Assembly: GCA_030635145.1 (NCBI GenBank)
Contig: DAOVZK010000002.1
Coordinates: forward strand, 21,119-85,118
DNA length: 64,000 bases
Direction: 5' to 3'
Source: Planctomycetota bacterium
GTDB lineage: Bacteria; Planctomycetota; Phycisphaerae; SM23-33
Shown one piece after another: positions 12,124 through 34,340 of this stretch. Every line of letters starts with the position of its first letter. Within the stretch, counting starts at the first letter, position 1. A program made the position numbers and the translations under genes. The notes below the pieces were generated by a model, which worked only from the letters and a program-made list of their open reading frames with translations, was not told the DNA's origin and searched no databases.

Positions 12124-12126
12124 AAT

Positions 12127-12686: not shown

Positions 12687-12787
12687 CAAAAATGGGTTGT
12701 ATTCGTAATGATTGGAAAAGGACGTAATTTTGTGCGAACTATTTGCAATGTGGAGTGTCCAAGGGAGGAGTTAAACGAATAATTCCA

Positions 12788-17434: not shown

Positions 17435-17438
17435 AACC

Positions 17439-18737: not shown

Positions 18738-19853
18738 GTGACATATCCCATAGACAACAGTAAATTACCCGCCGATCAGTCCACAACCACCGACGCCTCG
18801 CAGCAACCCAGCGGTGGCGACATCGCGGCCGTCGAAAAACTCACAGACGCCTACAAGAAAATTCGCGACGAAATGTCTCGGGTTATTGTCGGGCAAGACG
18901 CAGTCGTCGAACAGCTGCTGACTTGCGTGTTTGCTCGCGGGCATGCGATTTTGGAAGGTGTACCGGGATTGGCGAAAACGCTTATGGTTTCGTCGCTGGC
19001 GAAGTGCCTCGATCTGGGATTCTCGCGAATTCAGTTTACTCCCGACCTCATGCCGTCGGACATCACCGGCACCGAAGTCATCCAGGAAGACAAGTCCACC
19101 GGGCATCGCGAATTCAAATTCTTAAAAGGCCCGATCTTCCAGAACATCATCCTCGCCGACGAAATTAACCGCACGCCCCCGAAAACGCAGGCTGCACTTT
19201 TAGAGGCCATGCAGGAACGCCAAGTTTCCGTCGGTGGTAAGCAGCTGCCGATGAGCGATCCGTTCTTCGTACTGGCGACGCAAAACCCGATCGAGCAGGA
19301 AGGAACCTATCCCTTACCCGAGGCACAGCAGGACAGGTTCATGTACAAGATTTTCGTTTCGTATCCAAACTGGGACGACGAATTCGAGGTCATCCGCCAA
19401 ACAACCACGACCGAGCAAACGCAGCTGAAACCCGTGCTCGACGGTGAGACGATTCTCCAGGCCCAGCACACGATCCGCCGCGTACCCGTAGCCGACAGCG
19501 TTATCCAGTACGCCATGCGACTTGTGCGTGCGACGCGAATAAATGAATCCGACGGGCAAGGCGTACCAGAAATCGTGCGCGAGTACATCAGCTGGGGTGC
19601 AGGCCCGCGGGCGTGCCAATATCTCATACTCGGTGGAAAAGTCCGCGCGGTTCTTAACGGCCGCTTCCATGTCAGCACCGACGACATCGCCGCCGTCGCC
19701 AAACCCGTGCTGCGGCACCGCATCGTCACAAACTTCAATGCCGACGCAGAAGGCTTCGACCCCGACAAAATCATCGCCGCCCTGCTGGAATCCATCCCCG
19801 CACACGAAAGCAACATCGCGACAAATCCGCGAACGTCGAAGGCAGTGGAGTAG
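18738..19853 (+). CDS. MoxR-family AAA+ ATPase
   Basis: Walker A GVPGLAKT, Walker B ILADEINR, ~320-aa core, GTG start with an AGGAGA RBS. Confidence 0.9.
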
Positions 19854-19922: not shown

Positions 19923-21275
19923 ATGAAAAAGAGTTATTTGATTTGTATAACGAGCATGTTTTTATTGGCTTCAATGGCTTGTGGCGAGGAAATAAAACTC
20001 ACATATGAGCTAGTCAAAACGGTAGAAAAAGGGTACCTTCAAGGCAGCCCTCCACTACCAAAAAAAACTGAAAAATCAATAACCGTTGGCTTGAATAAAA
20101 ATGCCTTATTCCTGAAAACAAACGAGACCAAAACGATTTTTGATTTTACACAAAAACGCATAACAAGATTACGATTGAAAGAGAAACGCTATGAATCTGT
20201 TCCGCTTATTTCTATCGTAGACTTCAACGTTTGTGAACTTACAAATTGCATGGCAATGAAAAAAGCAGTGGCTGCTTTTGGTTTAGAACCAGGTAAGATG
20301 TTGGACAGTCAATTTAATATGGAAAATGTTTTTTGTGTTGAGTCTCCCAATAAGGAAATTAGGGACGAGGTGGGGAAAGTAAAAAAAGTTCAAAAGGGCA
20401 AAGAAATCCTGTTTGAGTATGACGGAAAAACAATTGTCAAATTTGTGCCGTCCAGTCATTCGGTACCCAAGGACTTTAGAGCATCTTTTAGACGAATGCT
20501 GATCTATGTAATGCCCATGCACCCTCAAATAAGACATGAAATCCAACAGATTAACGTATTTCCAGAAACATTGTATGTTCGGGCCTCGCATGGAACGATA
20601 ATTGTTTCAGAATGGAAATTAAAATCCTTCTCCAAACATAATGAAAACAGTTGCGTAATACCTAAAACATTTACGCCATACATTGACAAAGACGATTCTC
20701 TAAGAAGCGTTTTGCTGATGTCTAAAAACACAAAACCTCAGAGTAAAATGCAGGTCGTGCAACTTGTGGATGAGTTTGTTGAAGATAAACAATATCTTGA
20801 CGCGATTTTAGCTATTATAGAATACGGCTTCTATGCAGACGATTTTTCTCGCGAAAAATATTCTGCTGTTTTTAAGCAAACAGAGAATGATGAACACGTC
20901 AGGCAACTCATGCAATATGTTTCGCTTTGTTCAAAAAACAAACCTTCTCCACAAGCCGCCATTAAAATTTTAGATAAACTTCGAAAGCACAAGTTGAAGA
21001 AGGGATATGTTCTCGATATATGGAAAGCGAATTGGTTGACCGACTTAAAGAAATCTGAGCAGGCCAAGCAAATATTTTTAAGTGTTCTTAAAAAAAACCC
21101 GCATTTGGTAGGAGTATATCATGATTTGGGGAATTTATATCGAAGACAATATGATATGCCGTCAGCATGGCTGTGTTGGGATATGGCTTTGCAAATCACC
21201 CCAAACCATTCGATGCTTTTTCGAATCAAAATGCTAAAAAAGAAATTGGCCGAAAATTTTCCAGACTTTTTCTAA
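19923..21275 (+). CDS. low-GC hypothetical lipoprotein with a TPR-like C-terminus, inserted between moxR and DUF58
   Basis: GC ~35% against ~58% in both neighbours. Signal peptide plus Cys (LLASMAC). The C-terminus GVYHDLGNLYRRQYDMPSAWLCWDMALQITPNHSMLF is TPR-like. No other domain recognised. Confidence 0.65.
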   Translation: MKKSYLICITSMFLLASMACGEEIKLTYELVKTVEKGYLQGSPPLPKKTEKSITVGLNKNALFLKTNETKTIFDFTQKRITRLRLKEKRYESVPLISIVDFNVCELTNCMAMKKAVAAFGLEPGKMLDSQFNMENVFCVESPNKEIRDEVGKVKKVQKGKEILFEYDGKTIVKFVPSSHSVPKDFRASFRRMLIYVMPMHPQIRHEIQQINVFPETLYVRASHGTIIVSEWKLKSFSKHNENSCVIPKTFTPYIDKDDSLRSVLLMSKNTKPQSKMQVVQLVDEFVEDKQYLDAILAIIEYGFYADDFSREKYSAVFKQTENDEHVRQLMQYVSLCSKNKPSPQAAIKILDKLRKHKLKKGYVLDIWKANWLTDLKKSEQAKQIFLSVLKKNPHLVGVYHDLGNLYRRQYDMPSAWLCWDMALQITPNHSMLFRIKMLKKKLAENFPDFF

Positions 21276-21301: not shown

Positions 21302-22252
21302 ATGCCAAAAACAAAAAACGAACTGCTGGAATTTCTCGACCCGAAAGTCTTAAGCAAGATTTCGCGTTTGGATCTTCGCGCGCGATCCGTGGTAGAAGGA
21401 TTCGTCAGCGGAATGCATCGCAGCCCGTTTAATGGGTTCTCCGTCGAATTTGCCGCCCACCGCGAGTACGTTCCCGGTGATGACATCAAACACATCGACT
21501 GGAAAGTTCAGGCCCGCACCGACCGCTTCTACATAAAGCAGTACGAGGAAGAAACCAACCTCAAGGCAACGTTTTTGCTGGACGCATCGGAATCGATGCA
21601 CTACCCGGCGAAAAAACCGGGGCTTCCCAAGGCTGGGCGACTGACGAAATACGAATACGCCGCCACTACAGCGGCAAGCTTGGCGTTTATGCTGCAACAA
21701 CAGCAGGACAGCGTGGGGCTTGGGATTTTCGACGAGGATTTGAAAACATACCTACCGGCCGCTGGGCATATGTCGCAAATAAAAGCGATGGTACACGCTA
21801 TGAGCATCACCGAAGCCAAGGGTAAAACCTCGCTCGAAGATATCTGCCACACCGTCGCCGAAAAAATCTCACGCCGCGGATTAGTCTGCATCATCAGCGA
21901 CTTATTCGTCGACATCGACGGACTAATGCGAGCTTTGGAACATTTCCGCCACTACGAACACGAAGTGCTGGTCATGCACATCATGGACAGTGACGAACTG
22001 GAGTTCGACTTTCAGGGCACGACGCAATTTCGCGGGCTTGAGGCGATGGGCAACCTCACGGTTCAGCCTCGCGCGCTACGCGACGCATACCTGCGGGAAG
22101 TCGAAGAATTTCACCACCAACTCCGCAGCAAATGCGCAGCTGGACGGATCGACTACAAACTAATTTCGACCGGCGACCACCTCGACGCAGCCTTGTGTTC
22201 ATTCTTAGCAGCCAGGGCGGCGGCGGTTCGCAAAGCCTCAGCGAAACGATAA
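21302..22252 (+). CDS. DUF58 protein (MoxR-associated vWA-like)
   Basis: GMHRSPFNGFSVEFAAHREYVPGDDIKHIDWKVQARTDRFYIKQY is the DUF58 signature segment. Confidence 0.85.
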   Translation: MPKTKNELLEFLDPKVLSKISRLDLRARSVVEGFVSGMHRSPFNGFSVEFAAHREYVPGDDIKHIDWKVQARTDRFYIKQYEEETNLKATFLLDASESMHYPAKKPGLPKAGRLTKYEYAATTAASLAFMLQQQQDSVGLGIFDEDLKTYLPAAGHMSQIKAMVHAMSITEAKGKTSLEDICHTVAEKISRRGLVCIISDLFVDIDGLMRALEHFRHYEHEVLVMHIMDSDELEFDFQGTTQFRGLEAMGNLTVQPRALRDAYLREVEEFHHQLRSKCAAGRIDYKLISTGDHLDAALCSFLAARAAAVRKASAKR

Positions 22253-22341
22253 TTTTTAAATAACGTCCTTACAAACTGCATACGACTGGAATAATTTTCA
22301 CTAACGACTTTACAATGACAAGTAACTGGAATAAATAACGA

Positions 22342-24648
22342 ATGCCATTTTTGCATCCTTTAATATTTTGGATGGGCCTCGGGGCCGTCTCGATCCCGAT
22401 TATCATCTACATACTCAATCGCCGGCGATTCAAGATGATCGACTGGGCAGCGATGAGGTTTCTGCTCGACGCGCTTCGCAAAAATCGGCGACGCCTGCGA
22501 TTAGAAGAACTCATCCTGCTGCTGATCCGCTGCTTGATCGTTATGCTGCTGGGGTTGGGGTTGTCGCGATTTATCGGATGCGGGGACGACGACTCGCTCG
22601 GAAACGGCAACGGTGGGCGGTCGGTTGTGTTCGTGCTGGACGACAGCATTTCCATGGGCCAAAAACGTGGTGGTAGCGCAACAGCCTTCACCCTCGCCAG
22701 AAAAGACCTCGCCGACCGCATCGCAAAACTTTCCAGCAAAGACCACGCCGCCATCATCCTGACGTCTCGCCCGTCGGCGGGCGATGCGTTTTTACGGATG
22801 GGTCCCGTCGGTGACCCGCAAGGCCTGGCCAGCAGAATTAAAACTCTCGAACCTCGCGACACCCGCACGCATCTTGCAGAAGCGATGGCCGCAGCAAACG
22901 AGCTGCTCCGCGACACTGACGGAAAAAAGCATTTGTATATCCTGAGCGACTTCCGAAAAATCGACATTACCGGCGCAGCTGCGACGGGGCCGCTGCAAAA
23001 AGCGTTCGCCAATTTAGGAAACAGCAGCGTAAAAACGCTCGTGATGAATTTCGGCTTGGATTCCAAGCGAAACCTTACTGTAGAGTCGCTTGAACTAAAC
23101 GGAAAGTTCGCGACGGCTCGGGGAGAATCGCGAATTACCGTCAGTGTTCGCAACAACGGTTCGATGCGCGTGGAAAACGTACCCGTGAGCATTTGGGTTT
23201 CACTGCCAAACGGCGAAAAGCTTCGCAACGTCAAACTCCCAGAGATGACGATAAAGTCTCTCGATCCCGAAAAAATATGGAAGAAGGACATCTTCTTCAC
23301 GCCCGAAAAACCGGGCTTCGCCGTCATCAACGCCACCCTCCCAGCCGACGATTTACCGGGCGACAATTCCGGTTGGTTGTCGCTGGACGTGCAAAAAGCA
23401 ACGAAGGTGCTGCTCGTCGACGGGCACCCGAATATGGAGATCCCGGAAGAATCCGAGTCGTATTTCTTGCGGTTAGCGTTAGACCCGACCGGCCGGGCCG
23501 ATCACGGATACGATGTGGAAGTAATCAAACGCAACGACCTACCGGCCACGCGGTTTGAGAATTACGACGCGGTGTTTTTGCTGAACGTATCGGGTTTTCC
23601 GCTCGACCCGCAACCCGTGATAACGCCCGACAAAAAAGAAACCATCGAAAATTATCCGTCGCTGCTGGGGCTTGAGCAATACGTCTCCGCCGGTGGTGGG
23701 TTGGTGATTTTCACGGGCGACAGAATTGACACGAATTTTTATAACGGCCGACTGTTTAAGAAAGGTCGCGGGCTAAACCCCTTGCCGCTACGGGCCAAAG
23801 TCGGCGACCCGGAAAATCGTGACGTATACTTCGAGTTCGCCCCCGGAAGCATTCGCCCCGACGGTGTGATGCAGTTTTTCTCCGGCGAGGCATCGGTACT
23901 TGTTAAGCTGATTCGCTTTTTCGCATTCAACCCCGCCGACGTCAGCGGAAAGGTGCTGTCAGGCAGCGGCGACGAAATCGCATCGCCGATAATCGAAGCA
24001 ACGTACAACGATCCGAATTCGAGCCCCGCGGTTATCTCGCGGCGATTCGGAAAAGGCAGAGTCGTGATGTTCACCACAACATCCTCGCTCGACTGGAACG
24101 ACTGGGCGATGGACTCTGTCGATCAGGTGCGTGGTTTGTACGTGCTGTACATGGCCGAACTCGTCGATCGCGTGGCACGCAAAAAGGCCAACGCCTTCAC
24201 CGCCGACGTCGAACAAAGCATCACCTACCCAATCTCCGACGACCTCCGCGACACAAAGGTAACAATTCGCAACACGGAAACCGGCAGCGACATAACCACG
24301 CTTGTTCCGCAGGCAGGCCCCGCGGGCCAGCAGGTAACGCACAACAAAATTCTCGACGCCGGAATATATCGACTGATTTTCAGGTCGCCCGACTCGTCCA
24401 CAAGCGAGAAACTCTTCGCCCGAAATCCCGACGGGCTAGAAGGCCTACTGGACGTCGGCGACAAGAAAAATATCTCAGCCGCCCTTGGCAGCAGCGATTA
24501 CTCGTACATTGACAGATCGAAAATCCAGGCCGGTAGCAAACGTGACCGGCTTGGCGACAAGCAGTATTGGGTGTGGATCATTATTGGGCTTTGCGTTTTG
24601 CTGGGCGTGGAAACTTTCCTGGCACAACGCTTCGGGCATTGGAAATAG
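22342..24648 (+). CDS. BatA-like protein: N-terminal double-TM anchor (aerotolerance-regulator N-terminal domain) plus vWA plus large extension, C-terminal TM
   Basis: MPFLHPLIFWMGLGAVSIPIIIYILNRRRFKMIDWAAMRFLL...RRRLRLEELILLLIRCLIVMLLGLGLSRF matches the BatA double-TM domain, then VVFVLDDSISMG (vWA MIDAS-like). The C-terminus YWVWIIIGLCVLLGV is a TM helix. Confidence 0.8.
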   Translation: MPFLHPLIFWMGLGAVSIPIIIYILNRRRFKMIDWAAMRFLLDALRKNRRRLRLEELILLLIRCLIVMLLGLGLSRFIGCGDDDSLGNGNGGRSVVFVLDDSISMGQKRGGSATAFTLARKDLADRIAKLSSKDHAAIILTSRPSAGDAFLRMGPVGDPQGLASRIKTLEPRDTRTHLAEAMAAANELLRDTDGKKHLYILSDFRKIDITGAAATGPLQKAFANLGNSSVKTLVMNFGLDSKRNLTVESLELNGKFATARGESRITVSVRNNGSMRVENVPVSIWVSLPNGEKLRNVKLPEMTIKSLDPEKIWKKDIFFTPEKPGFAVINATLPADDLPGDNSGWLSLDVQKATKVLLVDGHPNMEIPEESESYFLRLALDPTGRADHGYDVEVIKRNDLPATRFENYDAVFLLNVSGFPLDPQPVITPDKKETIENYPSLLGLEQYVSAGGGLVIFTGDRIDTNFYNGRLFKKGRGLNPLPLRAKVGDPENRDVYFEFAPGSIRPDGVMQFFSGEASVLVKLIRFFAFNPADVSGKVLSGSGDEIASPIIEATYNDPNSSPAVISRRFGKGRVVMFTTTSSLDWNDWAMDSVDQVRGLYVLYMAELVDRVARKKANAFTADVEQSITYPISDDLRDTKVTIRNTETGSDITTLVPQAGPAGQQVTHNKILDAGIYRLIFRSPDSSTSEKLFARNPDGLEGLLDVGDKKNISAALGSSDYSYIDRSKIQAGSKRDRLGDKQYWVWIIIGLCVLLGVETFLAQRFGHWK

Positions 24649-24666
24649 AAATGGTAAATAGCACAC

Positions 24667-27342
24667 ATGGGTAGCATACTGGAATGGATTTTGAATCTCC
24701 CCTCGGGCAAGCTGGGTGGTGGTGATTGGCGGTTCGCGCTGACGTCGGAGCTCGGCAACTACGTCAAGCTCAGTCTGTTCGCAGCGGCCGTCGGGCTTAT
24801 CTGGTTAACCGTGCATTGCTACCGCCGCGAAGGCCTCGGTTCGCGCCGCACGAAAATCGTCCTCGCCGCCATTCGCATCACCGTAATTCTGCTGGTGCTC
24901 GGAATCCTGCTGCAACCGGCCGTCGTCCTGAAAATTTCGCAAACGCTCTACAGCACCGTGCTGGTAATTACCGACAACTCCCGCTCGATGTCCTTTAAAG
25001 ACCGCTACGCCTCGCCGGAAGAATCGGCCAATCGCGCCGCGCTTTGCAAATCGCTTGACGTCTCGCCGCAACAGCTCGCAGAAATGTCGCGATTGGATAT
25101 CATCAGGGCACAGCTGCAAAAATCGGGTTCGGTGCTGGGCGGGCTTAGCGAAGATCACCCGATCGAGATCATTTCGTTTTCGACCAACGCCCCGGACAAA
25201 GACCCGTACACCAGCGTGATCGATTCACTCGCTCGCGGTTCGGTCGCAAAAAACACCGACGACGCCAATGTACAAAAAACCCTCGCCTTGCTGCAGGGTA
25301 ACGGTTACGAAACAAACCTCGCGGCGGCGATTCGCGATTCGCTCGATCGTTTTCAAGGCAGGCGGTTGGGGGGAATCGTGATTCTTAGCGACGGGCAACC
25401 CGCCGGCAACGCCGCCGACCCCGACGAACGCCTCGCAGCTGCCATCGAATACGCCAAGCAGCGATCCGTTCCGCGATACGCCGTGCTGGTCGGGGATCCA
25501 ACCCCACCGCGAAACCTCAGCGTTTTGGCGCTGCGTACGCCGCGCGAAATTCGCACAAAAGTTCGCACCACCTTCACCGTCATGCTTGGGCATCGCAATA
25601 TGGAAAACAAAACGGTCGACGTCCGCATTTATCGGCGCAAGGCTGAGGAGCGTTGGCCGACCGATTTCGCAAAGCGAAAACCAATCGCGTCGCAAACCGT
25701 TAAACTCATCGACCCCAAAACCCAGGCCCCCGGAGACTCGCCCGGTGTGCAATCGGTGAAAATCAACCTCAAACCCACGAAGGACGACCTTGGGGAATAC
25801 GTCTACCGCGCGATGGTCGTAAAGCAAGACGACGAGCGAACCGGCGAAGACAACCACGCCGACGCGGTCGTGAAATTAACCGACAACAAGATTCGTATCC
25901 TGCTGGTCAGCGGTGACGCCGGGTGGGAATTCCAGTACATTCGCAACTATTTTCTGCGGCAGCCCGACCTGTACCGCCTGAGCGTCTGGCAGCAAAATGC
26001 CGACGCGGAAATCAACCAGTCCGCCTCTACGGGAATGAAACTCACGCGGCTGCCAAAGTCGCTCAAGGAACTCATCGACACCAGCAAAGACGGCGACGAG
26101 TCCACCACTCGGCCGACAACAAAACCTACCGCAACCACCAAACCGTCATCCACATCAAAACCCACAACCACCAGTGTAACCGGCAAAGATGAAACCATCC
26201 CGCCCGGTTACGATGTGGTTATCCTCTACGACCCAAGCCCCACGAAGGACGGGTTCGACAAAAACTTCATCAAGCTGCTGCACGAATACGTTACCGTTCA
26301 TCGCGGTGGGCTTTGCTACATTGCCTCCAACAAGCACACGTTCGACGTGCTGCGCGACCCCGCCGCCAAGGGGCTTTCCGACCTGCTGCCGGTTGTCGTC
26401 GCACGAAACGACATCGACGTGGCACGCATAATTCGTGAAAGCCAACCGAAGGGATGGCCGGTAAAACTCACCAGCTACGGATACAACCATCCGCTGACAT
26501 CGCTCGGGGGTTCCGACGACCGCAACAAGCGAATCTGGTCGCTATTACCGGGGATCTACTGGTCGCATGCCGTGGCCCGAAAAAAACCGCTCGCCCGCGT
26601 GCTGGTTGAGCATTCGGACCCGAACAAAAAAATGAAGTCGCAGCACGGAAGCGTTCCGTTGGTTGCGGTGCACTCGGCGGGGTCGGGGAGGGTTGCGTAT
26701 GTGGGTTTTGACGAAACGTGGCGGTGGCGGTTCGTGGACGACGGATTTTATCATCGCCGGTTCTGGGGGAACATGGCGCGATATTTGGCACCGTCGAGTC
26801 CGCGGCAGGTAATCATCGCGACGGGCGGGGATAAGTTCTCGGCCGGTGCGCGAATCCCCGTCGAAATCGAAGCCTACGATCGCGACTACCGACCGCTGGA
26901 CGATAAGACTTTCACGATAGTGATGATCGACACGAAAACTGGCAAGAAAACGCAGCACATCGCCAAAAACGTCGCCGGCAAGCCCGGCCGCTACAAAACG
27001 TCCATCCTCGCGGCCCACACCGGATCGTACACGATTACCTGCGACAAAAAAATCGCCGACAGCAAACGCGTAGCCTCTAAGCAGATCGAAATTACGCTAC
27101 CGCAGGCAGAGTCGAAACGCACCGAGGCAAACGAGCGAACGATGCAAACCATCGCATCGAAAAAAACTCACTATCTACCCGTAAGCAAAATCGATCAGCT
27201 CGCAGAGCTTATCCCGGCCGGTCGGCTGCAAACGGTCGAAGACGAAAAATACACCCTCTGGGATACCAGCACAATGCTGTGGATAATTATCGCACTGCTG
27301 AGTATCGAATGGTTCCTGCGTAAAAGAAAGAACATGGCGTGA
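24667..27342 (+). CDS. double-TM-anchored vWA-like protein (BatB-like) with a Pro/Thr-rich linker and a C-terminal TM
   Basis: N-terminal TM hairpin, VLVITDNSRSM vWA-like start, the linker TTRPTTKPTATTKPSSTSKPTTTS (26101-26170), C-terminal MLWIIIALLSIEWFLRKRK. Confidence 0.7.
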   Translation: MGSILEWILNLPSGKLGGGDWRFALTSELGNYVKLSLFAAAVGLIWLTVHCYRREGLGSRRTKIVLAAIRITVILLVLGILLQPAVVLKISQTLYSTVLVITDNSRSMSFKDRYASPEESANRAALCKSLDVSPQQLAEMSRLDIIRAQLQKSGSVLGGLSEDHPIEIISFSTNAPDKDPYTSVIDSLARGSVAKNTDDANVQKTLALLQGNGYETNLAAAIRDSLDRFQGRRLGGIVILSDGQPAGNAADPDERLAAAIEYAKQRSVPRYAVLVGDPTPPRNLSVLALRTPREIRTKVRTTFTVMLGHRNMENKTVDVRIYRRKAEERWPTDFAKRKPIASQTVKLIDPKTQAPGDSPGVQSVKINLKPTKDDLGEYVYRAMVVKQDDERTGEDNHADAVVKLTDNKIRILLVSGDAGWEFQYIRNYFLRQPDLYRLSVWQQNADAEINQSASTGMKLTRLPKSLKELIDTSKDGDESTTRPTTKPTATTKPSSTSKPTTTSVTGKDETIPPGYDVVILYDPSPTKDGFDKNFIKLLHEYVTVHRGGLCYIASNKHTFDVLRDPAAKGLSDLLPVVVARNDIDVARIIRESQPKGWPVKLTSYGYNHPLTSLGGSDDRNKRIWSLLPGIYWSHAVARKKPLARVLVEHSDPNKKMKSQHGSVPLVAVHSAGSGRVAYVGFDETWRWRFVDDGFYHRRFWGNMARYLAPSSPRQVIIATGGDKFSAGARIPVEIEAYDRDYRPLDDKTFTIVMIDTKTGKKTQHIAKNVAGKPGRYKTSILAAHTGSYTITCDKKIADSKRVASKQIEITLPQAESKRTEANERTMQTIASKKTHYLPVSKIDQLAELIPAGRLQTVEDEKYTLWDTSTMLWIIIALLSIEWFLRKRKNMA

Positions 27343-29639
27343 GTGATCAATTGTTACAATCCTGTGTACTGGGAAAATTGCGGTCGCTGCGAATGCTACT
27401 GCGCGGGCGACTGCTGCTCGAGGGAGTTGGATGGTTTGTCCTGGGGATTATCGCCTTGATACTCGTGACGCTGGCGTTCGACTACACGCTGCATCTCAAC
27501 CGCGAACAACGAATCATGATCACCGCCTTGTGCTGCGTGGGAATTCTTGTGATTGTTTGGAAAACGCTCCTCGCCCCGCAAACCGTTGCCATGAAAAACT
27601 CCGACCTTGCCCTGCTCGTCGAGCGGCATTACGGACAGCTGGACGACAGACTTATCAGTACACTGGAGCTAACCGACCGAGAAATGATCATCGCCTGCGG
27701 GGCAAGCGAAGAAATGGTCGCCCAGATGTCGCGCGAGGCGAACGACATTGCATCGCAGCTGAAATTTTCAAAGATCGTGGAAATGCGGCGAATGGGAAAA
27801 GTGTGGATTCTCACGGGAATTGCACTGCTGATGATGGGAAGTTTCACGGTTCTTAAAAGCGATGTCATGTCGCTATGGTTTCAGCGAAACGTACTCATGT
27901 CCAATATCGATTGGCCGCAAGACACGTACCTGTGCGTGTACTACGTTAACTACGACGGGCAGCTGGCACCGCTGATGGAAGTGGCACCCGACGGAACCAT
28001 CACCAATACCGTCGACAAATTCGACGTGCTGCGCGGTGAGGACATGAAAATCGTCACCATTACCACGGACGGGAGTGAAACGCCCGATCAGGTAAAGCTG
28101 CACGCGTGGTACCCTTCGGTGGGTGATACCGAAGGATTGGCGGGCAAACTTTCGGGTCAACAGGCTACGAAATATCTTGCGAAGCTTCCGGGCCAGAGTT
28201 CTCGCGGAGTATACGTGCAGAAAATTTCTGGCGTGTCGGAGGAGTTTCGATTTTACGTTACCGGCGGCGACGACAAACGCGATAAACGTAATCCTCACAA
28301 CGTCTGCCTCGTCGATCCACCAGCCGTCAAGCAAATACTGTTTCCCGTGGAATTCCCCGCGTACATGCGAAAAACACAATCCGAACCCGTCGACGGATCG
28401 CGCGGTGTGCTTTCCATTCCGCTGGGGTCAACCGTATACATTCAGGCAATGGTGAACAAAGACCTGATGTCCGGCGAGCTGATCGTAAATGAAAAATCGG
28501 CGAGCAAGCTCGAAATACTCAACGATTCCAAAAACCGCCCGCGCGAGTTGCGAGGGTCGTTCACCGTAGACGGAAAAAACGTACCACGCAGCGACACGCT
28601 GAGATTCACCCTCAAAGACACCAGCGGATATTCCAATCGCCGCGGAGAGCAAATTATTCTGCAGGTTATCCCCGACGCTGCACCGAGCATAAAGCTACAA
28701 TTTCGCGGAGTGCGAAATGTCATTTGCCCGACGGCAATGATTCCGCTGATCGTATCCGGGAAGGATGACAACGGCATTGAGCGGATTGATGTTTCTTACA
28801 TCTGCACACCCCCGGAAAAAGAATCCGCCGACGCACCGGCCTCGCCAACCCGTCGGGCCCTTGAGCCGATCTTAAGCGGGCCTGAAATCAAAAAGCAGTT
28901 GGTTGCAAATCGCACGCTGGACATTCAGCCGCTGAAGCTCATCCCCGGTTCGAAGGTGCGAGTAAAAGCCCGCGGGCTTGATCTGCTACCGAAAAATCTG
29001 CAGGGCCCGAATGCGGCAGATTCCAACGAACTGACGTTTAGTGTGATTACGACCGAAGAGCTTCTCGCTCAGCTCGTGGGCAAGCAGAAAGAAGTTCAGC
29101 TGGAATTCTTCATGGCGATGGGGCAGCAGGCGCTTTCGCAAGGCCGATGCGATGCCGTCAGCAAACAGCTGGCCAGCGGTAAGATCGGCCCCACCGTTCC
29201 ACAGCGTCTCACCGACGCCATCGGCCGACAACTTGCCGTCACGAACGAATCAATCAAAGCCGCCGACACCCTCCACGCCGTCGCCGACGAAATGGAATTC
29301 AACCGCATAGGAAAACCGCAAGACCATCAGGCGATACGCACGAATATCGTGCTACCGTTGCGGCATCTGGTGACCCAAATGCGTGAAGTGTTGCAGCAAC
29401 TCCAAGCTGCCAGCAAAATAAATGACCCCGCGCAGCTGCGGGAAAAACTCGAGAAAATTGTCGCAGAGCAAACTGTGATTTATGAGGAAATGGAAAAAAT
29501 TCTCAAGCATATGCGAAAGCTGGAGAATCGGTTGGAGATAGCACGGCGGTTAGAACAAATTTTGATAATGTCACGCGAACTTGAGGAGATTCTCAGGCAA
29601 CGGGCAGACGAAAGTACATCCGAAACGTTTGAAGACTAA
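27339..29639 (+). CDS. double-TM-anchored large extracytoplasmic protein (third consecutive double-TM protein of the cluster)
   Basis: GTG start overlapping the previous stop (GTGA). N-terminal hairpin FVLGIIALILVTLAFDY...IMITALCCVGILVIVW and a helical C-terminal region. Confidence 0.65.
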   Translation: MSDQLLQSCVLGKLRSLRMLLRGRLLLEGVGWFVLGIIALILVTLAFDYTLHLNREQRIMITALCCVGILVIVWKTLLAPQTVAMKNSDLALLVERHYGQLDDRLISTLELTDREMIIACGASEEMVAQMSREANDIASQLKFSKIVEMRRMGKVWILTGIALLMMGSFTVLKSDVMSLWFQRNVLMSNIDWPQDTYLCVYYVNYDGQLAPLMEVAPDGTITNTVDKFDVLRGEDMKIVTITTDGSETPDQVKLHAWYPSVGDTEGLAGKLSGQQATKYLAKLPGQSSRGVYVQKISGVSEEFRFYVTGGDDKRDKRNPHNVCLVDPPAVKQILFPVEFPAYMRKTQSEPVDGSRGVLSIPLGSTVYIQAMVNKDLMSGELIVNEKSASKLEILNDSKNRPRELRGSFTVDGKNVPRSDTLRFTLKDTSGYSNRRGEQIILQVIPDAAPSIKLQFRGVRNVICPTAMIPLIVSGKDDNGIERIDVSYICTPPEKESADAPASPTRRALEPILSGPEIKKQLVANRTLDIQPLKLIPGSKVRVKARGLDLLPKNLQGPNAADSNELTFSVITTEELLAQLVGKQKEVQLEFFMAMGQQALSQGRCDAVSKQLASGKIGPTVPQRLTDAIGRQLAVTNESIKAADTLHAVADEMEFNRIGKPQDHQAIRTNIVLPLRHLVTQMREVLQQLQAASKINDPAQLREKLEKIVAEQTVIYEEMEKILKHMRKLENRLEIARRLEQILIMSRELEEILRQRADESTSETFED

Positions 29640-29667
29640 ACTAAAAAGTTTGCAACAGGAAATTAAA

Positions 29668-31869
29668 ATGATCGACAAAACGAAATCAAAATCACGATTG
29701 CTTATTCTAGTTGTGTGCGCGTTGGGAATTCTTGCGGGCCCTGCGGTGCTTCATGCGCAGGACTCCACCCCCAAGGACAAAGAAAGCAAAGATCTGGTGC
29801 ACTCGGCGGCGTTTATAAAGAAGAGGCTTAACGAGCTTTTAGTGGCGATGTCGGATGTGGCGACGCTGCTGGAAAAAACTGAGCCTGAGGTGGCGAAAAT
29901 TTTGCGTCGGGCGGTGGATTATGCTCAGTCCGAGGACGTTTCCGATAAGCTGGAAGACGTGATTAATGCGTTGCGGGGCGGGTTAGACGAGGCTGCCCAA
30001 GTCAGCCACAGTGAAGTTATCGCCGACCTTACTACCATGCTTCGAATCATCGAGGGCGGAGTAAATGAAGATTCCGATATGGACAAACGTATCGCCGAGT
30101 TGCGGGCGGTGCGTAATCGGCTCGACAAGACAATCAAAAAGCAAACCGTCGAGGAAAAGAAAACACGCCCCGCCGCCAACGAAAAAGATATCGACGACCA
30201 AACGAAAAAGCTCATCGAATATCTGGAAAATATCGTCAAACAGCAGCAGGAACTGATGGGCAAAACCGGCAAACTCAAACCCGCCACCCCGGATGTTAAA
30301 AATCTTAGCGAACTTCGTAATACCATTCGCGAGCTTATCAAGCAGCAGGAAAAAATCAGCAAGGCCTCCGACACCTCTGCCCTGGCGAAGATTCCGGTTC
30401 TCGGTGAGGCTCAGGCGAAACTGTCGAAAAAAACCCAAGCCGCCATCAAGGCCATCAAAAAATCGAACATCGATCCCAAAACTCGCGACAAAACCGCAGC
30501 ATTCACCAAAGACGCCGCAGACGAAATGACCCACGCCGCCAAGTCGCTAAGTGAGTCGAACCCCAACTCTGCATCGCCGTCGCAAAAGCGAGCGATGGAG
30601 CGACTAAAGGCAGCCGAGAAAAAACTCTCCGAGGCGATAGCGAAAAAAACCGCGGGGCAGCCCAGCAGCGAACTTTCGCAGAAACAGGGCAAGCTCGCCG
30701 AGCAGACGGATGGGCTTAAGGACGAGTTAAAAAATATCGCCGACAAGGCGGGCATGGAAACGAAGAAAACCGGCGATCTCGGCAAGGCTGCCAAGTGTAT
30801 GAAAAAGGCTGAAGATAAACTCTCGTCGCAAGAATCATCTCCCGCGGTAAAGCAGCAGGAGATGGCGTTAAAAGAGTTGAAACGTGCCGTCGACGACGCC
30901 AAAAAACTTCGCCGGCTGGCTGCCGAAAAAGCGAAAACGAAAGTACCCGCCGAGCCGCAAAACGAAATCGCCGAAGAAACCAAAAAACTCGCCGAAGATA
31001 TGAAAAACACCGAATCCAAAAAGCCAATGGCTGGGCAGCCTTCGGTTTCCAAGGCAAGCAAATCAGCGGGGGCGGCGGGGAAGAAACTTTCCAGCGGTAA
31101 GTGCGGCGGGGCAAACAGCGACCAGAAAAAAACCATCGAAGAGCTGAAAAAAGCTATGTCACAACTCGACGAAGAAATCGAAGAGCTTGAACGTCTTTCA
31201 AAAATGGAAAAACTCGCCAGCATTGAAGAACAGCTGGAGAAAGTTCTCACTGACCAGAAGGAATGTACGCAAAAAACGCAGCGGGTGTATACGCTTCGTG
31301 CGAAAACAAAACCGCACTATAACCGCCAAGCCACCCAGACGATTTTGGAAGTTTCCAAACAGGAGAATTCGCTCAGCAAAGACGTTGGTGCGATCCGCCG
31401 CCTGCTTGTTAAGGAAGGAACAACGGTGGTTTTCCCCGAAGTTCTCGACGACATCGTCAAGGATATGCAGAGCGTTTCCAAACGTCTGGAGGCGACAGAT
31501 CCGGGTAAGTTGACGCAGGCGATGCAAAAGGATATCGAAGAAACGATTCAGGAGCTGCTCGACGCCGTCCGTAAGGAGTTGTCGAAAGGACCCGGGCGGA
31601 AGAAAGGCGGAGGAGCATGCAAGGGTGGCGGCAAATCTCCCCTCGTTCCCCCGCTGGCGGAGTTGCGTATGCTGCGTTTGAAAATGAAGCGGGTTAATCG
31701 GGGAACGAAACGGCTTGAGAAAATGAAAACGAGCAAGATGATAACCGAACCCGAGGCTAAAATCCAACACGCCAAGCTCGCCGAACGTCACAAAAAAGTT
31801 CTAGAGCTGGCAGGAAAAATCAAAAGCAAACTTGACAGCTCCCAGCCAAAACTGAAAAATCAGGAGTAA
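29668..31869 (+). CDS. secreted 733-aa K/E/A-rich coiled-coil protein
   Basis: ATG with an AGGAAA RBS. Signal peptide LLILVVCALGILAGPAVLHAQ. The rest is almost entirely charged heptad-like sequence. The ORF-track start at 29581 overlaps the upstream gene and is rejected. Confidence 0.7.
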   Translation: MIDKTKSKSRLLILVVCALGILAGPAVLHAQDSTPKDKESKDLVHSAAFIKKRLNELLVAMSDVATLLEKTEPEVAKILRRAVDYAQSEDVSDKLEDVINALRGGLDEAAQVSHSEVIADLTTMLRIIEGGVNEDSDMDKRIAELRAVRNRLDKTIKKQTVEEKKTRPAANEKDIDDQTKKLIEYLENIVKQQQELMGKTGKLKPATPDVKNLSELRNTIRELIKQQEKISKASDTSALAKIPVLGEAQAKLSKKTQAAIKAIKKSNIDPKTRDKTAAFTKDAADEMTHAAKSLSESNPNSASPSQKRAMERLKAAEKKLSEAIAKKTAGQPSSELSQKQGKLAEQTDGLKDELKNIADKAGMETKKTGDLGKAAKCMKKAEDKLSSQESSPAVKQQEMALKELKRAVDDAKKLRRLAAEKAKTKVPAEPQNEIAEETKKLAEDMKNTESKKPMAGQPSVSKASKSAGAAGKKLSSGKCGGANSDQKKTIEELKKAMSQLDEEIEELERLSKMEKLASIEEQLEKVLTDQKECTQKTQRVYTLRAKTKPHYNRQATQTILEVSKQENSLSKDVGAIRRLLVKEGTTVVFPEVLDDIVKDMQSVSKRLEATDPGKLTQAMQKDIEETIQELLDAVRKELSKGPGRKKGGGACKGGGKSPLVPPLAELRMLRLKMKRVNRGTKRLEKMKTSKMITEPEAKIQHAKLAERHKKVLELAGKIKSKLDSSQPKLKNQE

Positions 31870-31872
31870 GAC

Positions 31873-33096
31873 ATGACCGCAAAACGACTCATAATCGCAA
31901 TAGTTCTGGTTTTCTCGCTGGGAATTCTCACGAGTTCGCCGGTTCGAGCGCAATTCGTCGACGAAAAATACTCCTCCGTCACCTCACAGGATCAGATCGA
32001 CGACATTCTCGCGGATCTGTCCAACGAGGAGCTTGAAGCGATGGTTCAGGCTGCCATTCGGCGGCGTCTGGAAGTAGAGCGGCTGCAGACGGCGGCGGAA
32101 ATTTCGCAGAATATTCTCTACGAACCCGAGCGCATCGAAAAGGCCCTTACCCTGCTGGAGAACGTGGAGAAATCCTCGCAAAGCGACAACATCTCGCGAA
32201 TTTGCAAGGCCTACGCCATTACCGACGCGCGGTTTGCCGAGCCATATGAACTCTACACCAAAGGCAACTACCAAGCCGCCGCCGCCCTCCTGAAACCCAT
32301 GCTCAACCCCGAAGAGGAAACGTATCTCAGCGCGGCGATGCATTATGTGTACGGGGTGTCGCTGATTAAGACGGATAAAATTTGGAAAGGCACCGAAGCA
32401 TTGACGGAAATTCTCGTCAATCTTCCTGACCGCATAAGTTTTGCGTCGGAGGCAGCGTTTCAGGCGGCAGCGGCGTACGAAAAAATGGGCAGAAAAATAT
32501 ACGCCATGCAAATGTACAGCTACGCCATGCAAAATTATTCGCTTACGATGGACAAAAAACTGCTCGACGAAACGACGACAAAGCTTGCGAAATATGAGAC
32601 GATTTACAAGAACCCCATGAAGACGATCACCGAAATGCTTGGCGAGATCAAAGGACGGTTAGACAAAGATGACACGGGCAAAAAAACGCAGCTCAAGCAG
32701 CAAGAAACCCTCGATGTGCTGGATGACTGGATAAAGACGCTCGAAGAAAAAAACCGCCAGAAGGATAATCAAAACCAGAAAAACCAGCAGCGAGAAAAAC
32801 GCAAGCAGGAAAGAAAGAAGACTGAGGAGGAGAAAAAATCCGCAGGAAAAAAACAGGGCAATCCGTCCGGGAGCAAGCGGTCTAAAACCGGCGCGAGGGC
32901 ATCAGTGTTGGTACCAGGCCCGGTGAGTACGCCGAACAATATGGCGAAAAAATTTGGGGCAGGATCGTCGGACAAATGGTCAGAAATGCCCGCCAAGCAG
33001 CGTGAGCTTATCGAAAATCTAATGCGCCAGCGCACCGCCCAGCGGCGAAGCGGATTGGTTAGCGACTACCATAAAAAAATTGCTGAGGGTGAATAA
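31873..33096 (+). CDS. secreted TPR-like protein with a K/E/Q-rich C-terminal tail (BatC/BatE-like position)
   Basis: Signal peptide LIIAIVLVFSLGILTSSPVRAQ, TPR-like helices, and the tail KDNQNQKNQQREKRKQERKKTEEEKK. Confidence 0.65.
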   Translation: MTAKRLIIAIVLVFSLGILTSSPVRAQFVDEKYSSVTSQDQIDDILADLSNEELEAMVQAAIRRRLEVERLQTAAEISQNILYEPERIEKALTLLENVEKSSQSDNISRICKAYAITDARFAEPYELYTKGNYQAAAALLKPMLNPEEETYLSAAMHYVYGVSLIKTDKIWKGTEALTEILVNLPDRISFASEAAFQAAAAYEKMGRKIYAMQMYSYAMQNYSLTMDKKLLDETTTKLAKYETIYKNPMKTITEMLGEIKGRLDKDDTGKKTQLKQQETLDVLDDWIKTLEEKNRQKDNQNQKNQQREKRKQERKKTEEEKKSAGKKQGNPSGSKRSKTGARASVLVPGPVSTPNNMAKKFGAGSSDKWSEMPAKQRELIENLMRQRTAQRRSGLVSDYHKKIAEGE

Positions 33097-34340
33097 TGCC
33101 GATGAAAGCTCCGAAAATCCTGAATATCCTGAAACTTCGGGGGAATTATGCCGCGGCGGCGAGCTTCGTTGTAATGCTGTTCGCGATGATTACGACGAGC
33201 GCTGCGGAGACGGTGGAAACGCTCGACATGCAGCAAATCGAAGGGGCAATTGGCACCTTCGACGGAAAAACGCTGACGATCAAAATCGGTGATGGGGTAA
33301 AGAAAATTTCGGTCAAAGACCTCGCCGAACTCGTATTGCAAAAACCCAAAAACGCCAAATCCGCCCCCGGCACTATTGTGCTGCAAACAGTATGCGGGGA
33401 TATCATCCCCGTGAAAAATCTCACGCTGGACAAAGATCAATTCACGCTGCAAAATCCGCTACTGGGAAAAGTCGCCCTGAAAATGGACAAGGTCAAGGTG
33501 ATTTTCACCCCCGCCGAAAACGAAACTCCGCAGGACGTAATTGACAGCTGCACCGCCAACAAATATAAGCAAGGTTTGCGGGATATGCTGGTGATCGTTC
33601 GCAAAAATGGCGTCTTGCAGTCGGCACGCGGGGTGCTAAAGAGTGTCGGGCGGGAAAAAATCGGCTTCCAGCTCAAAGGGAAAGATCGCAGAATTTCCCG
33701 GGCATCGGTGCGTGCCATTTGGCTTTCGGAAACGCCCCAAAAACCCGCAGCCCCGCGCGGTGTGCTTATCGCAACCGACGGAACGCGGATTAAATTTACA
33801 GCCCTGAAGTTTGACGGAAAAACCGTCGAGGCCGAATCGTGGGTATTCGGAAAGTTGAAGTTCAACCGCCAGATGCTTAGTGGTGTGCGGTTCGTTTCGG
33901 ATCGCGTCGTGACACTCAGCGAACTGAAACCGACCGATGTTAAGGAACATGGATTCTTCGACAGCAAGACCTATCCCTACCGCATAGACCTTTCGACGAC
34001 GGGTAAGCCCATAACCCTGGGGGGTAAGGTTTACATTACTGGTTTGGGGCTTCACAGCTATTCGCAAATAACCTATGCGATCGACAAAAAGTATCGCACG
34101 TTTTTTGCGATTGTCGGAATCGACGACAATGCAAATTCCGACGGCGAGGCTAGCATCACGATTTTGGGTGACGGCAAAAAGCTGCTGCCCGAGACACAGC
34201 TGACAGCTGCGGGCAAGCCCGTCGCGGTTCGCTTAAATGTCACGGGCGTAAAGGAGCTGACGATCATCGTCGACAGCGGATCCGACAAACTTCCCGTCGG
34301 TGACCATGTGGATATCGTCGGTGCGCGACTGATAAAATGA
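33096..34340 (+). CDS. membrane-anchored protein with a C-terminal NPCBM-like carbohydrate-binding-module domain
   Basis: The C-terminus GLGLHSYSQITYAIDKKYRTFFAIVGIDDNANSDGEASITILGDGKKLL...LNVTGVKELTIIVDSGSDKLPVGDHVDIVGARL follows the NPCBM/NEW2 pattern (GlgvHa...F.a.vGvDD...v.F.v..DGk...v.vtGak.L.L.v.d.gd...DhadW). 1-nt overlap with the upstream gene (TAATG). Confidence 0.65.
   Translation: MPMKAPKILNILKLRGNYAAAASFVVMLFAMITTSAAETVETLDMQQIEGAIGTFDGKTLTIKIGDGVKKISVKDLAELVLQKPKNAKSAPGTIVLQTVCGDIIPVKNLTLDKDQFTLQNPLLGKVALKMDKVKVIFTPAENETPQDVIDSCTANKYKQGLRDMLVIVRKNGVLQSARGVLKSVGREKIGFQLKGKDRRISRASVRAIWLSETPQKPAAPRGVLIATDGTRIKFTALKFDGKTVEAESWVFGKLKFNRQMLSGVRFVSDRVVTLSELKPTDVKEHGFFDSKTYPYRIDLSTTGKPITLGGKVYITGLGLHSYSQITYAIDKKYRTFFAIVGIDDNANSDGEASITILGDGKKLLPETQLTAAGKPVAVRLNVTGVKELTIIVDSGSDKLPVGDHVDIVGARLIK

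Follow-up and report, generated by a model that had tools for sequence, protein, structure and literature searches.

The conserved block and its genes

Seven genes, here lettered E to K, occupy positions 21302 to 34340 of the window, by which we mean the whole 64,000-nucleotide stretch of Planctomycetota DNA that was analyzed. All seven open reading frames lie on the plus strand where an earlier note on this DNA had placed them, including those for DUF58, a 768-residue BatA, two further hairpin proteins, a 733-residue protein and an NPCBM protein. Intergenic gaps range from -4 to 89 bp. The same note had read the junctions as implying obligate co-translation, which cannot be deduced from them: only G/H (4 bp, GTGA) and J/K (1 bp, TAATG) overlap, the spacing elsewhere being 89 bp (E-F), 18 bp (F-G), 28 bp (H-I) and 3 bp (I-J), and promoter and terminator scans of the cluster did no better than on shuffled sequence.

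The cluster is real, but its conserved unit is larger than the block first delimited. It comprises ten genes and starts at about position 12743, so that a start at 21302 omits the conserved members A, B and C (12743 to 19853). Among the 30 related loci with at least 9 kb of flank on both sides, which we treated as fully covered, 23 have the order A-B-C-E-F-G-H-I-J-K and all 30 keep G-H-I-(J)-K. The block is conserved across planctomycetes and verrucomicrobia, and because an identical gene set and order is found in dozens of genomes, it is not a product of chance. Rearranged forms occur in Verrucomicrobiales (C-E-F-A-B-G-H-I-K), on the SH-PL62 plasmid of a cultured planctomycete (A-like-B-C-E-F-G-H-K) and in three variant loci, L083 (MoxR-DUF58-BatA-VWA-H), L084 (fused HI-x-B-K...PQQ) and L085 (PQQ-MoxR-DUF58-BatA-VWA-fused HI). 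Identity across loci is highest for C (56-78%), followed by E (42-73%) and B (33-72%), and is 18-49% for A, H, I, J and K, a gradient that sets the predicted cytoplasmic proteins C and E above the predicted periplasmic proteins A, H, I, J and K. The ordered cluster spans the phylum and its identity drops steadily with lineage distance, unlike that of patchy defense islands. A literature search found no paper describing this cluster type in PVC bacteria.

The block opens with A (1563 residues; 12743..17434, plus strand), a protein with a predicted N-terminal hydrophobic segment, probably exported or anchored, that joins a BamB-like PQQ beta-propeller (PQQ_2, 7.1e-27) to TPR/helical repeats (TPR_6, 1.4e-6). 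A lies upstream of G in 40 of the 46 loci with enough flank, and a PQQ propeller protein adjoins the module in L084, L085 and the SH-PL62 plasmid. B (390 residues; 17439..18611, plus strand) is a predicted exported protein of squalene-hopene-cyclase/prenyltransferase-type alpha/alpha repeats (SQHop_cyclase_C, 2.5e-10), found in 44 of 46 loci and still present where the cluster has been rearranged (L084, Verrucomicrobiales, SH-PL62). The best conserved member, present in 45 of 46 loci, is C (18738..19853, plus strand), an MRP-type MoxR AAA+ ATPase (AAA_3, 2.2e-63; AAA_lid_2, 4.4e-15) with a predicted cytoplasmic location.

Between moxR and the DUF58 gene sits D (450 residues, lipoprotein-like; 19923..21275, plus strand), which is not a conserved member. 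Its GC content is 0.366 against 0.51-0.57 in neighboring genes, none of 80 related loci holds a homolog, and C and E are directly adjacent in 40 of 54 related loci. D is a foreign, low-GC insertion unique to this genome. The earlier note had passed over the foreign nature of D, as well as the ATPase C and genes A and B.

DUF58 and two paralogous VWA membrane proteins

E (21302..22252, plus strand) matches DUF58 (PF01882, 1.6e-43) and is predicted to be a cytoplasmic VWA-like adaptor. Its MIDAS motif is intact (D94-x-S96-x-S98), and DxSxS is present in 100% of 60 family members.

F (768 residues; 22342..24648, plus strand) combines a BatA_N double-TM hairpin, a VWA domain, a CARDB-type beta-sandwich, a class-I-glutamine-amidotransferase-like region and a C-terminal TM segment. 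It matches BatA_N (1.2e-14), TIGR02226 (2.7e-15; 56.4 bits against a cut-off of 23.05) and VWA_2 (1.4e-8), and its orthologs additionally match CARDB and, weakly, Glyco_hydro_42M. TM segments are predicted at residues 7-25, 57-75 and 743-761, the MIDAS residues are D100/S102/S104, and the best-conserved stretch is the arginine-rich loop (26-56) between TM1 and TM2. G (891 residues; 24667..27342, plus strand) has a similar plan of two N-terminal TM helices, a VWA domain with MIDAS residues D103/S105/S107, beta-sandwiches, a GATase1-like domain and a C-terminal TM helix. Among 24 G homologs, VWA_2 is matched by 13 and GATase1_like (PF07090) by three, with Filamin and MG2 matches as well; relatives of G occur in 362 genome stretches. 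F and G align over residues 57-764 and 64-888, respectively, with an hhalign probability of 99.6, and they are by this measure paralogs. A glutamate within the last TM helix is conserved in both, and DxSxS conservation in the E, F and G families is 93-100%. These BatA/BatB-like proteins are two to three times the length of BatA and BatB.

DUF4175-type proteins and their secreted neighbors

H (766 residues; 27339..29639, plus strand) is predicted to comprise a TM hairpin, a cytoplasmic helical domain of about 75 residues, a third TM segment, four periplasmic beta-sandwiches and a C-terminal helical bundle. An AF2 model of H has a pLDDT of 88.9, and its Foldseek matches are tandem Ig/MG-domain proteins. 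Conserved positions cluster in the cytoplasmic domain, where E95 is invariant. A profile search with the H family found 20,259 cluster representatives, and six of 31 H homologs match DUF4175 profile positions ~190-390; H corresponds to the N-terminal part of DUF4175.

I (733 residues; 29668..31869, plus strand) is a K/E-rich, segmented helical protein with a signal peptide, predicted to be secreted. It matches DUF4175 (PF13779) at profile positions 508-750 (2.2e-17; 62.8 bits, cut-off 27.3) and corresponds to the C-terminal part of that family. Against the alphaproteobacterial TIGR02302 it scores 19.4 bits, below the cut-off of 394.3, and is not an equivalog. An earlier description of I as almost pure charged heptads was overstated: charged residues make up 36% (K 15.6%, E 9.5%), 25 residues are proline, and in 37% of windows along the protein the amphipathic 3.5-residue periodicity lies above the 95th percentile of shuffled sequences. 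H and I are fused elsewhere: in two long H homologs, P0215 and P0216, the C-terminal half is matched by the HMM of the I family. Their loci (L084 and L085) carry further cluster genes: B-like, NPCBM and PQQ genes in L084, and PQQ-MoxR-DUF58-BatA-VWA in L085.

J (407 residues; 31873..33096, plus strand) is predicted to be secreted and to consist of a TPR-fold domain (residues ~85-245) followed by a long helix, then a linker that is basic and disordered, and a helix at the end. Its earlier designation as a TPR protein holds at the level of fold, since the top Foldseek PDB matches of its AF2 model (pLDDT 79.1) are all TPR proteins and two J homologs match TPR_16, but not at the level of sequence profiles, the J of the window having no Pfam TPR match at E<=5. 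A module of about 56 residues is common to I (585-640) and J (241-296; hhalign probability 92.5). J occurs in 33 of 42 loci and was not detected in Verrucomicrobiales.

K (414 residues; 33096..34340, plus strand), found in 41 of 42 loci, is a predicted secreted protein with an N-terminal beta-rich region. Residues 272-412 match NPCBM (PF08305) at 1.6e-30 over profile positions 3-136 of 137, and PDB relatives of the module are of CBM51 type (7js4, 8pvs, 2vmg/2vmh). K thus carries a predicted carbohydrate-binding module of NPCBM/CBM51 type; this assignment and that of BatA_N in F, on which the earlier note had staked its reading, were both confirmed. Some variants (L085, L083) lack J and K, which are therefore accessory. 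NPCBM modules are usually found with glycoside hydrolases acting on foreign glycans, and given this usual company, nutrient capture fits K equally well as wall binding.

Operon class and predicted topology

In a broad sense the cluster is Bat-like, as proposed earlier, with MoxR, DUF58 and BatA_N-VWA proteins in a block much larger than the Bacteroides operon. In the strict sense that identity fails. BatD (PF13584) and DUF4381 have no match in any of the ten conserved proteins at E<=0.01, while both are annotated in L087, a Rhizobium plasmid locus with a genuine Bat-type operon, and a Pfam-type domain search found no SH3 domain in the ten. Because BatD and DUF4381 are absent, this is not a classical Bat operon; the DUF4175 type of H and I points instead to operons of MoxR, DUF58, a double-TM protein and DUF4175, the class to which we assign the cluster core from its domain content. 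Two features of the cmd-type operons of this class are present: a long (600-1000 residues) TIGR02226 double-TM protein, here F, and a DUF4175 protein with N-terminal TM segments and a long C-terminal region of low complexity or helical character, here encoded by two genes, H and I.

We derived a topology from the positive-inside rule and the H model. F, G and H start with two hydrophobic helices; F and G also end in a TM segment, whereas H contains a third one. The MoxR protein C and the DUF58 protein E would be cytoplasmic and I, J, K, A and B exported. Of F and G, only a tail and the short loop of conserved, arginine-rich sequence would face the cytoplasm, and their VWA, beta-sandwich and GATase1-like domains would be periplasmic, with an inner-membrane tether at either end; in BB0173, a BatA_N protein, the VWA domain does face the periplasm (PMC5700661; PMC3893208). 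H would place its conserved domain of ~75 residues in the cytoplasm, with four beta-sandwiches and a helical bundle reaching into the periplasm. The TM and signal-peptide predictions support the earlier view that the products are membrane-anchored or exported. An envelope-spanning assembly, also proposed, goes further than the inner-membrane and periplasmic locations predicted here: neither an outer-membrane component nor a peptidoglycan-binding domain was found among the cluster proteins.

Proposed mechanism and alternatives

MoxR proteins are remodeling chaperones that work with VWA partners (PMC3893208, PMC9976466). Our leading reading, to which we give a probability of about 45%, is that the block encodes a glycan-binding periplasmic scaffold assembled or remodeled by MoxR and DUF58, a PVC expansion of MoxR-DUF58-double-TM-VWA-DUF4175 operons. 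In its favor we counted the domains, synteny maintained through rearrangement, the Rosetta-stone fusion of H and I, F/G paralogy, the I/J module, MIDAS conservation, the conservation gradient, the clustered conserved positions, the H model and the published work on BB0173, the Rhizobium cmd operon and MoxR-VWA chaperones. The MoxR ATPase would be the motor: its hexamer, which DUF58 would recruit by way of its MIDAS site, would engage those conserved parts of F, G and H that face the cytoplasm and spend ATP on assembly or remodeling of the complex. With MoxR and DUF58 in the cytoplasm and nearly all partner mass in the periplasm, this coupling step is conjecture. In the periplasm, the MIDAS sites of F and G would then hold the helical DUF4175 proteins H and I and the TPR protein J in an extended scaffold. 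The CBM51-like lectin module of K, the propeller/TPR protein A and the alpha/alpha-repeat protein B would fasten this scaffold to a glycan, most likely a cell-wall or envelope polysaccharide. The expected role would be to keep the envelope intact and maintain its architecture, a role reported for the Rhizobium cmd operon (RL3499-RL3502), and not aerotolerance as such. Counting against this reading are the lack of a phenotype in Bat-type mutants of Leptospira (PMC3557215), the absence from the cluster of outer-membrane and peptidoglycan-binding components, the usual company of NPCBM modules and the loss of J and K from some variants.

A bolder version, which we think improbable, makes the scaffold a hitherto unrecognized skeleton of the periplasm, assembled with ATP and specific to Planctomycetota and Verrucomicrobiota, that stands in for the Lpp- or Tol-Pal-type envelope tethers of other Gram-negative bacteria. 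If so, the PVC periplasm, which is unusually large, would have its geometry set or held by the membrane-tethered VWA proteins together with the long helical proteins of DUF4175 type, and the lectin module would anchor this framework either to the wall or to polysaccharide that the cell has captured.

The same genes invite other readings. The glycans could be external, bound by K, A and B for periplasmic capture or adhesion, with the membrane scaffold, powered or assembled by MoxR, holding or moving them within the enlarged PVC periplasm. The relation of K's CBM51-type NPCBM to modules of glycan-degrading enzymes, the persistent linkage of A, B and K to the core through rearrangements and the build-up of periplasmic polysaccharides by PVC bacteria (PMC13174399 and references therein) all fit; yet the conserved block encodes neither a glycoside hydrolase, lyase or sulfatase nor a transporter, TonB-dependent or otherwise, K is absent from L083 and L085, and the mucin-utilization loci of Akkermansia, known for such uptake, differ in composition. 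We consider this use unlikely. A membrane-proximal quality-control or export-assist system, in which F, G and H are receptors through which MoxR and DUF58 unfold or pass on I, J, K, A and B as clients and no stable scaffold forms, is in our estimate unlikely. MoxR-VWA pairs do serve as maturation or unfolding chaperones (PMC3893208, PMC9976466, PMC3495828), mycobacterial MoxR1 is reported to aid RipA export (PMC4810496), and signal peptides are predicted for five of the ten conserved proteins. However, the domain search revealed no peptidase or translocon component in the block, the H-I fusion and the common I/J module speak for a stable structural partnership and against a client role, and the F/G MIDAS sites are predicted to be periplasmic, beyond reach of any MoxR ATPase.

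Decidedly unlikely, in our judgment, is a classical Bat system that protects the periplasm from oxidative damage or, as proposed for B. fragilis, supplies reducing power. MoxR, DUF58, BatA_N+VWA, a second VWA membrane protein and a TPR-fold protein are all there, and bat mutants of B. fragilis, Francisella and Riemerella have stress phenotypes (PMC3557215, PMC11834572). Against it stand the lack of BatD and DUF4381 noted above, the lack of any redox domain in the conserved block by domain search, and the DUF4175 components H and I, which are foreign to Bat operons; moreover, Leptospira Bat-type mutants had no phenotype, the bat deletions showing no oxidative-stress defect (PMC3557215). A MoxR-vWA-beta-propeller conflict system for anti-phage defense or programmed death, of the ternary kind described in multicellular bacteria (PMC7159879), is largely refuted and highly improbable. 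The propeller protein A is linked to MoxR and VWA proteins and C matches the bpMoxR profile (1.8e-9), but AAA_3 suits C far better (2.2e-63), the propeller is BamB-like and predicted to be exported rather than cytoplasmic, VMAP and effector domains are lacking, PADLOC gave no match except one coiled-coil artifact, and the phylum-wide order with its steady decay of identity is not that of defense islands.

Comparison with known systems

Like the membrane-coat-like proteins of PVC bacteria (PMC2799638), A joins a beta-propeller and TPR/helical repeats in one very large protein, but A is marked for export at its N-terminus and its propeller is of BamB/PQQ type, and the likeness is one of architecture only. 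The pairing of an AAA+ MoxR with VWA/MIDAS partners recalls RavA-ViaA, NorQ-NorD and CbbQ-CbbO, whose logic is ATP-driven remodeling of a MIDAS-bound target (PMC3893208, PMC9976466, PMC13036017). The targets of those pairs are cytoplasmically accessed enzymes, either soluble or in the membrane, whereas here the sole cytoplasmic VWA-like protein would be DUF58 and most of the partner mass periplasmic.

With Bat operons (Bacteroides fragilis BatI and its spirochaete, Francisella and Riemerella homologs) the cluster shares an MRP-type MoxR gene heading the set, DUF58, BatA_N+VWA proteins and, at the level of fold, a TPR component; for the Bat products, a complex in the membrane or periplasm has been proposed (PMC3557215, PMC5700661, PMC11834572). 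Unlike those operons it is without BatD, DUF4381 and SH3/BatE, its BatA-like proteins F and G run to 768-891 residues, gain beta-sandwich and GATase1-like domains and close with a TM helix, and it adds DUF4175, NPCBM, propeller and alpha/alpha-repeat proteins.

The Rhizobium leguminosarum operon RL3499-RL3502 (cmdA-D) likewise has an MRP-type MoxR, DUF58, a long BatA_N/TIGR02226 hairpin protein and DUF4175/TIGR02302, the last two domains presumably carried by RL3501 and RL3502. This operon is reported to affect envelope integrity and cell shape (cited in PMC5700661 and PMC3893208). Unlike it, the present cluster has a duplicated double-TM VWA protein (F, G), a DUF4175 protein split into H and I, and four more conserved exported proteins (A, B, J, K).

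Gene content and conservation of the cluster

Eleven long open reading frames, A to K, run in tandem along the + strand at 12743-34340, and the window's genes have identical copies on contig JAGLOU010000034 of GCA_023138805.1. By Pfam, A (12743-17434, 1563 aa) combines a BamB-like PQQ propeller with TPRs, and B (17439-18611, 390 aa) carries repeats of the squalene-cyclase/prenyltransferase type; they are followed by the MoxR gene C (18738-19853, 371 aa) and by D (19923-21275, 450 aa). An earlier note on this DNA took in E to K only and described an extended, closely spaced Bat-like cluster. Pfam and NCBIfam searches bore out its calls of DUF58 for E (21302-22252, 316 aa; 1.6e-43) and of BatA_N (1.2e-14; TIGR02226, 2.7e-15) with a VWA domain for F (22342-24648, 768 aa). 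G (24667-27342, 891 aa), H (27339-29639, 766 aa), I (29668-31869, 733 aa) and J (31873-33096, 407 aa) follow, and K (33096-34340, 414 aa) contains the NPCBM domain that had been proposed (1.6e-30, residues 272-412), whose PDB relatives are CBM51-type modules. Spacing is as tight as described, with E-K junctions of 89, 18, -4 (GTGA), 28, 3 and -1 (TAATG) bp. A promoter and terminator scan gave results no better than shuffled sequences and is thus uninformative about co-transcription.

Scanning a G alignment against one genome per GTDB species, we found 362 stretches encoding relatives and compared the best 80 with all window proteins. Among loci from these best 80 of 362 that extend at least 9 kb either side of G, the exact order A-B-C-E-F-G-H-I-J-K was present in 23 of 30, and G-H-I-(J)-K in all 30. 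The ten genes are kept together across at least two phyla, and several arrangements occur. In Verrucomicrobiales the order is C-E-F-A-B-G-H-I-K; one locus (L085) reads PQQ-MoxR-DUF58-BatA-VWA-fused HI, another (L083) MoxR-DUF58-BatA-VWA-H, and a third (L084) has a fused HI gene, a 261-aa gene, a B-like gene and an NPCBM gene, with a PQQ gene nearby. The chief argument that the products of A to K, D excepted, cooperate functionally is that the same genes are retained despite these rearrangements. Judged by this comparison, the real unit opens with A, or no later than C, and the start previously placed at 21302 lies too far downstream.

Order is also kept on the 81-kb plasmid pPL62-3 (NZ_CP011276.1; L086/L088) of the cultured Planctomyces sp. 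SH-PL62, which carries an A-like gene, B, C, E, F, G, H and an NPCBM gene, with moxR (C) spanning the plasmid origin. The alignments of B, C and E there are each broken into two parts, suggestive of frameshifts or decay. This was the sole plasmid matched in a tblastn search with F, and because its host is a cultured planctomycete, genetics may be feasible there.

Some loci depart from a single complete copy. Two MAGs each carry two separate copies (L040 and L061 in CAYWTX01; L057 and L068 in JBEKCP01), which shows that the whole system also exists as paralogous duplicates. On a 2.4-Mb contig (L005, CAXXMC010000004.1), G-H-I-J-K stand alone, the 10 kb upstream containing none of A-F, indicating that the second half of the cluster is separable from the MoxR half. 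Five Verrucomicrobiales loci (L070, L071, L072, L075 and L080) have a second, divergent MoxR gene after the NPCBM gene at the cluster end, its product 31-32% identical to C.

D stands apart from this pattern. Its GC content is 0.366, against 0.51-0.57 in all neighbors; no homologue was found among the related loci (best 80 of 362 compared), and C and E directly adjoin in 40 of 54 loci. D is lipoprotein-like, is weakly TPR-like at its C-terminus, and has the appearance of foreign DNA that entered recently between moxR and the DUF58 gene. The 3' boundary of the cluster is K, because neither the GFO/IDH/MocA oxidoreductase gene just downstream (34737-36050, - strand) nor the DDE transposase fragment beyond it (36519-36917, + strand) is kept at related loci. 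Directly 5' of A, on the same strand, lie genes for a small DUF2089 zinc-ribbon/HTH protein and a 137-aa product (11716-12540, +), which may be a regulator.

Two paralogous VWA proteins

As the earlier note had it, two hydrophobic helices open each of F, G and H; F and G have a further TM helix at the C-terminal end. G itself gave no Pfam match, and PDB sequence searches with F, G, H and J returned nothing useful. Among 24 G homologues, 13 matched VWA_2, three matched GATase1_like (PF07090) and some matched Filamin, MG2 or YtkA beta-sandwich families. When family alignments from the related loci were compared profile to profile, G aligned with F over nearly its full length (probability 99.6), identifying it at the sequence level as a paralogue of F. 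F orthologues additionally match CARDB and, weakly, Glyco_hydro_42M, which we take to have a GATase-like fold. Together with the paralogy, these matches point to a common layout of TM hairpin, VWA, beta-sandwich, GATase1-like domain, beta-sandwich and TM helix. A nearly invariant cysteine in the GATase1-like region of G, Cys550, was considered as a catalytic nucleophile and rejected, because its counterpart in F, on the strand following the GGG motif, is Val.

Conservation of the MIDAS motif DxSxS is 93-100% across the families of E, F and G. The best-conserved stretch of F is the loop between TM1 and TM2 (residues 26-56), which has eleven Arg/Lys residues; by the positive-inside rule the loop would be cytoplasmic and the body from VWA to GATase1-like domain periplasmic. 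Experimental topology of the BatA_N protein BB0173 agrees with this orientation (PMC5700661), and G is probably arranged likewise. A Glu inside the last TM helix is kept in both paralogues (F E757 and G E881, aligned by hhalign), and H has invariant D48 and R58 in its TM1-TM2 loop region, which hints at an intramembrane contact.

A divided DUF4175 protein and its exported neighbors

The AlphaFold model of H (pLDDT 88.9) comprises the TM hairpin, a helical segment (85-146), a third TM helix (154-172), four beta-sandwiches (198-569) and a helical bundle (572-765); Foldseek matched generic tandem Ig/macroglobulin arrays only. The basic N-terminus and a basic stretch ahead of TM3 suggest that residues ~78-153 of this model, including invariant E95, are cytoplasmic and the remainder periplasmic. 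Six of 31 H homologues match DUF4175 at profile positions ~190-390, while I matches positions 508-750 (2.2e-17). In two long homologues of H, P0215 (1216 aa, 5.7e-36) and P0216 (1023 aa, 1.5e-21), the C-terminal half is matched by an I-family HMM. These Pfam matches and fusions identify H and I as the two halves of what elsewhere is one DUF4175-type protein; the link does not derive from profile-profile similarity, since hhalign found none of significance between H and I, nor between H and J. The H-family profile matched 20,259 cluster representatives in a library of 1.84 billion proteins, making H a very common type of protein. One distant H-like protein (850 aa; L082, 10001-12553) is encoded directly 3' of an ECF sigma factor gene and a 434-aa gene, at a site lacking nearby MoxR and DUF58 genes, so the H fold serves in another context too.

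Predicted N-terminal export signals are present on A, B, I, J and K, that of I appearing cleavable. I had been described as almost pure charged heptads. It is K/E-rich (15.6% K, 9.5% E) and helically periodic, with an amphipathic 3.5-residue periodicity that in 37% of windows clearly exceeds that of shuffled sequence, but its 25 prolines imply segmented helices rather than one long heptad array. The description of J as a TPR protein holds at the level of fold only: J has no Pfam TPR match even at E<=5, two homologues match TPR_16, and the all-helical AlphaFold model (pLDDT 79) retrieves TPR proteins as all of its top PDB matches by Foldseek, including YbgF and MamA, with consensus TPRs at 2.3-3.2 A. 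I (585-640) and J (241-296) have in common a ~56-residue helical module (hhalign probability 92.5), after which each protein has a low-complexity basic linker and the motif LVPxP; the module may be a docking element common to the two.

A possible role in envelope architecture

MoxR ATPases are known to use ATP to remodel targets gripped by a VWA/MIDAS partner (PMC3893208, PMC9976466). C and E lack hydrophobic segments. We propose that cytoplasmic MoxR and DUF58 would work on F, G and H through their conserved cytoplasmic segments, so that a complex is assembled or reset; that F and G would hold the helical H, I and J proteins by their periplasmic MIDAS sites; and that K, A and B would join this scaffold to a glycan. 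Contacts, direction of coupling and ligand are all predictions. Mutation of the nearest studied relative, the Rhizobium leguminosarum operon RL3499-RL3502 (cmd), causes envelope and cell-shape defects, according to work cited in PMC5700661 and PMC3893208. By analogy, we favor a role in envelope architecture and integrity, at a probability of about 0.45.

Other readings were weighed against this one. The observation of an extended cluster was confirmed, and its interpretation as Bat-like stands in part: the MoxR/DUF58/BatA core is there, but a true aerotolerance system of the Bacteroides type is unlikely given that BatD and DUF4381, present in a genuine Bat-type operon, are absent, that the block has no redox domain, and that Leptospira bat mutants lack the phenotype (PMC3557215). 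An apparatus for capturing or adhering to polysaccharides would suit the NPCBM module of K and the biology of the PVC superphylum; we consider it less probable than an envelope role, as some variants do without K and the block contains no conserved hydrolase or transporter. The cluster might instead be a chaperone or export-assist system that forms no stable scaffold, a reading against which the H-I fusion and the shared modules point to structural partners. A MoxR-vWA-propeller conflict system was rejected, and with it a defense function, on the PADLOC result (no match besides one coiled-coil artefact); effector domains are lacking, the propeller is exported, and conservation tracks vertical inheritance.

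Relation to known systems

Few bacterial gene clusters that lack a known mechanism are as widespread as the MoxR/DUF58/BatA-type operons. The cluster described here is conserved, widespread and uncharacterized, with parts from recognized families and a mechanism that we infer; we found no description of the extended form in the literature searched. Two published candidates were rejected: what Kamneva et al. (2012) described as a "conserved PVC genetic module" is an unrelated DUF1501/PSCyt module, and MUL1 and MUL2, the mucin-utilisation loci of Akkermansia, are of pilus or Sus-like type. Fusions and paralogue pairs in the PVC version indicate which products work together, and it brings a recognizable sugar-binding module; with ten kept genes, it thus gives more entry points than the versions of four to eight genes studied so far. 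Should the system shape or stabilize the PVC envelope, it would bear on the old debate over how these cells are built.

With MoxR, DUF58, a long TIGR02226-type protein and DUF4175, the core corresponds to the cmd-type operon and not to the Bat operon of Bacteroides. Because I falls well short of the TIGR02302 cut-off, the cluster's proteins do not count as equivalogs of their alphaproteobacterial counterparts. Acinetobacter AdvA is a DUF4175 protein too, but acts in cell division in another context. Unlike the cmd-type operon, the cluster has the duplicated pair F and G, a DUF4175 protein split into H and I, and four more conserved exported proteins.
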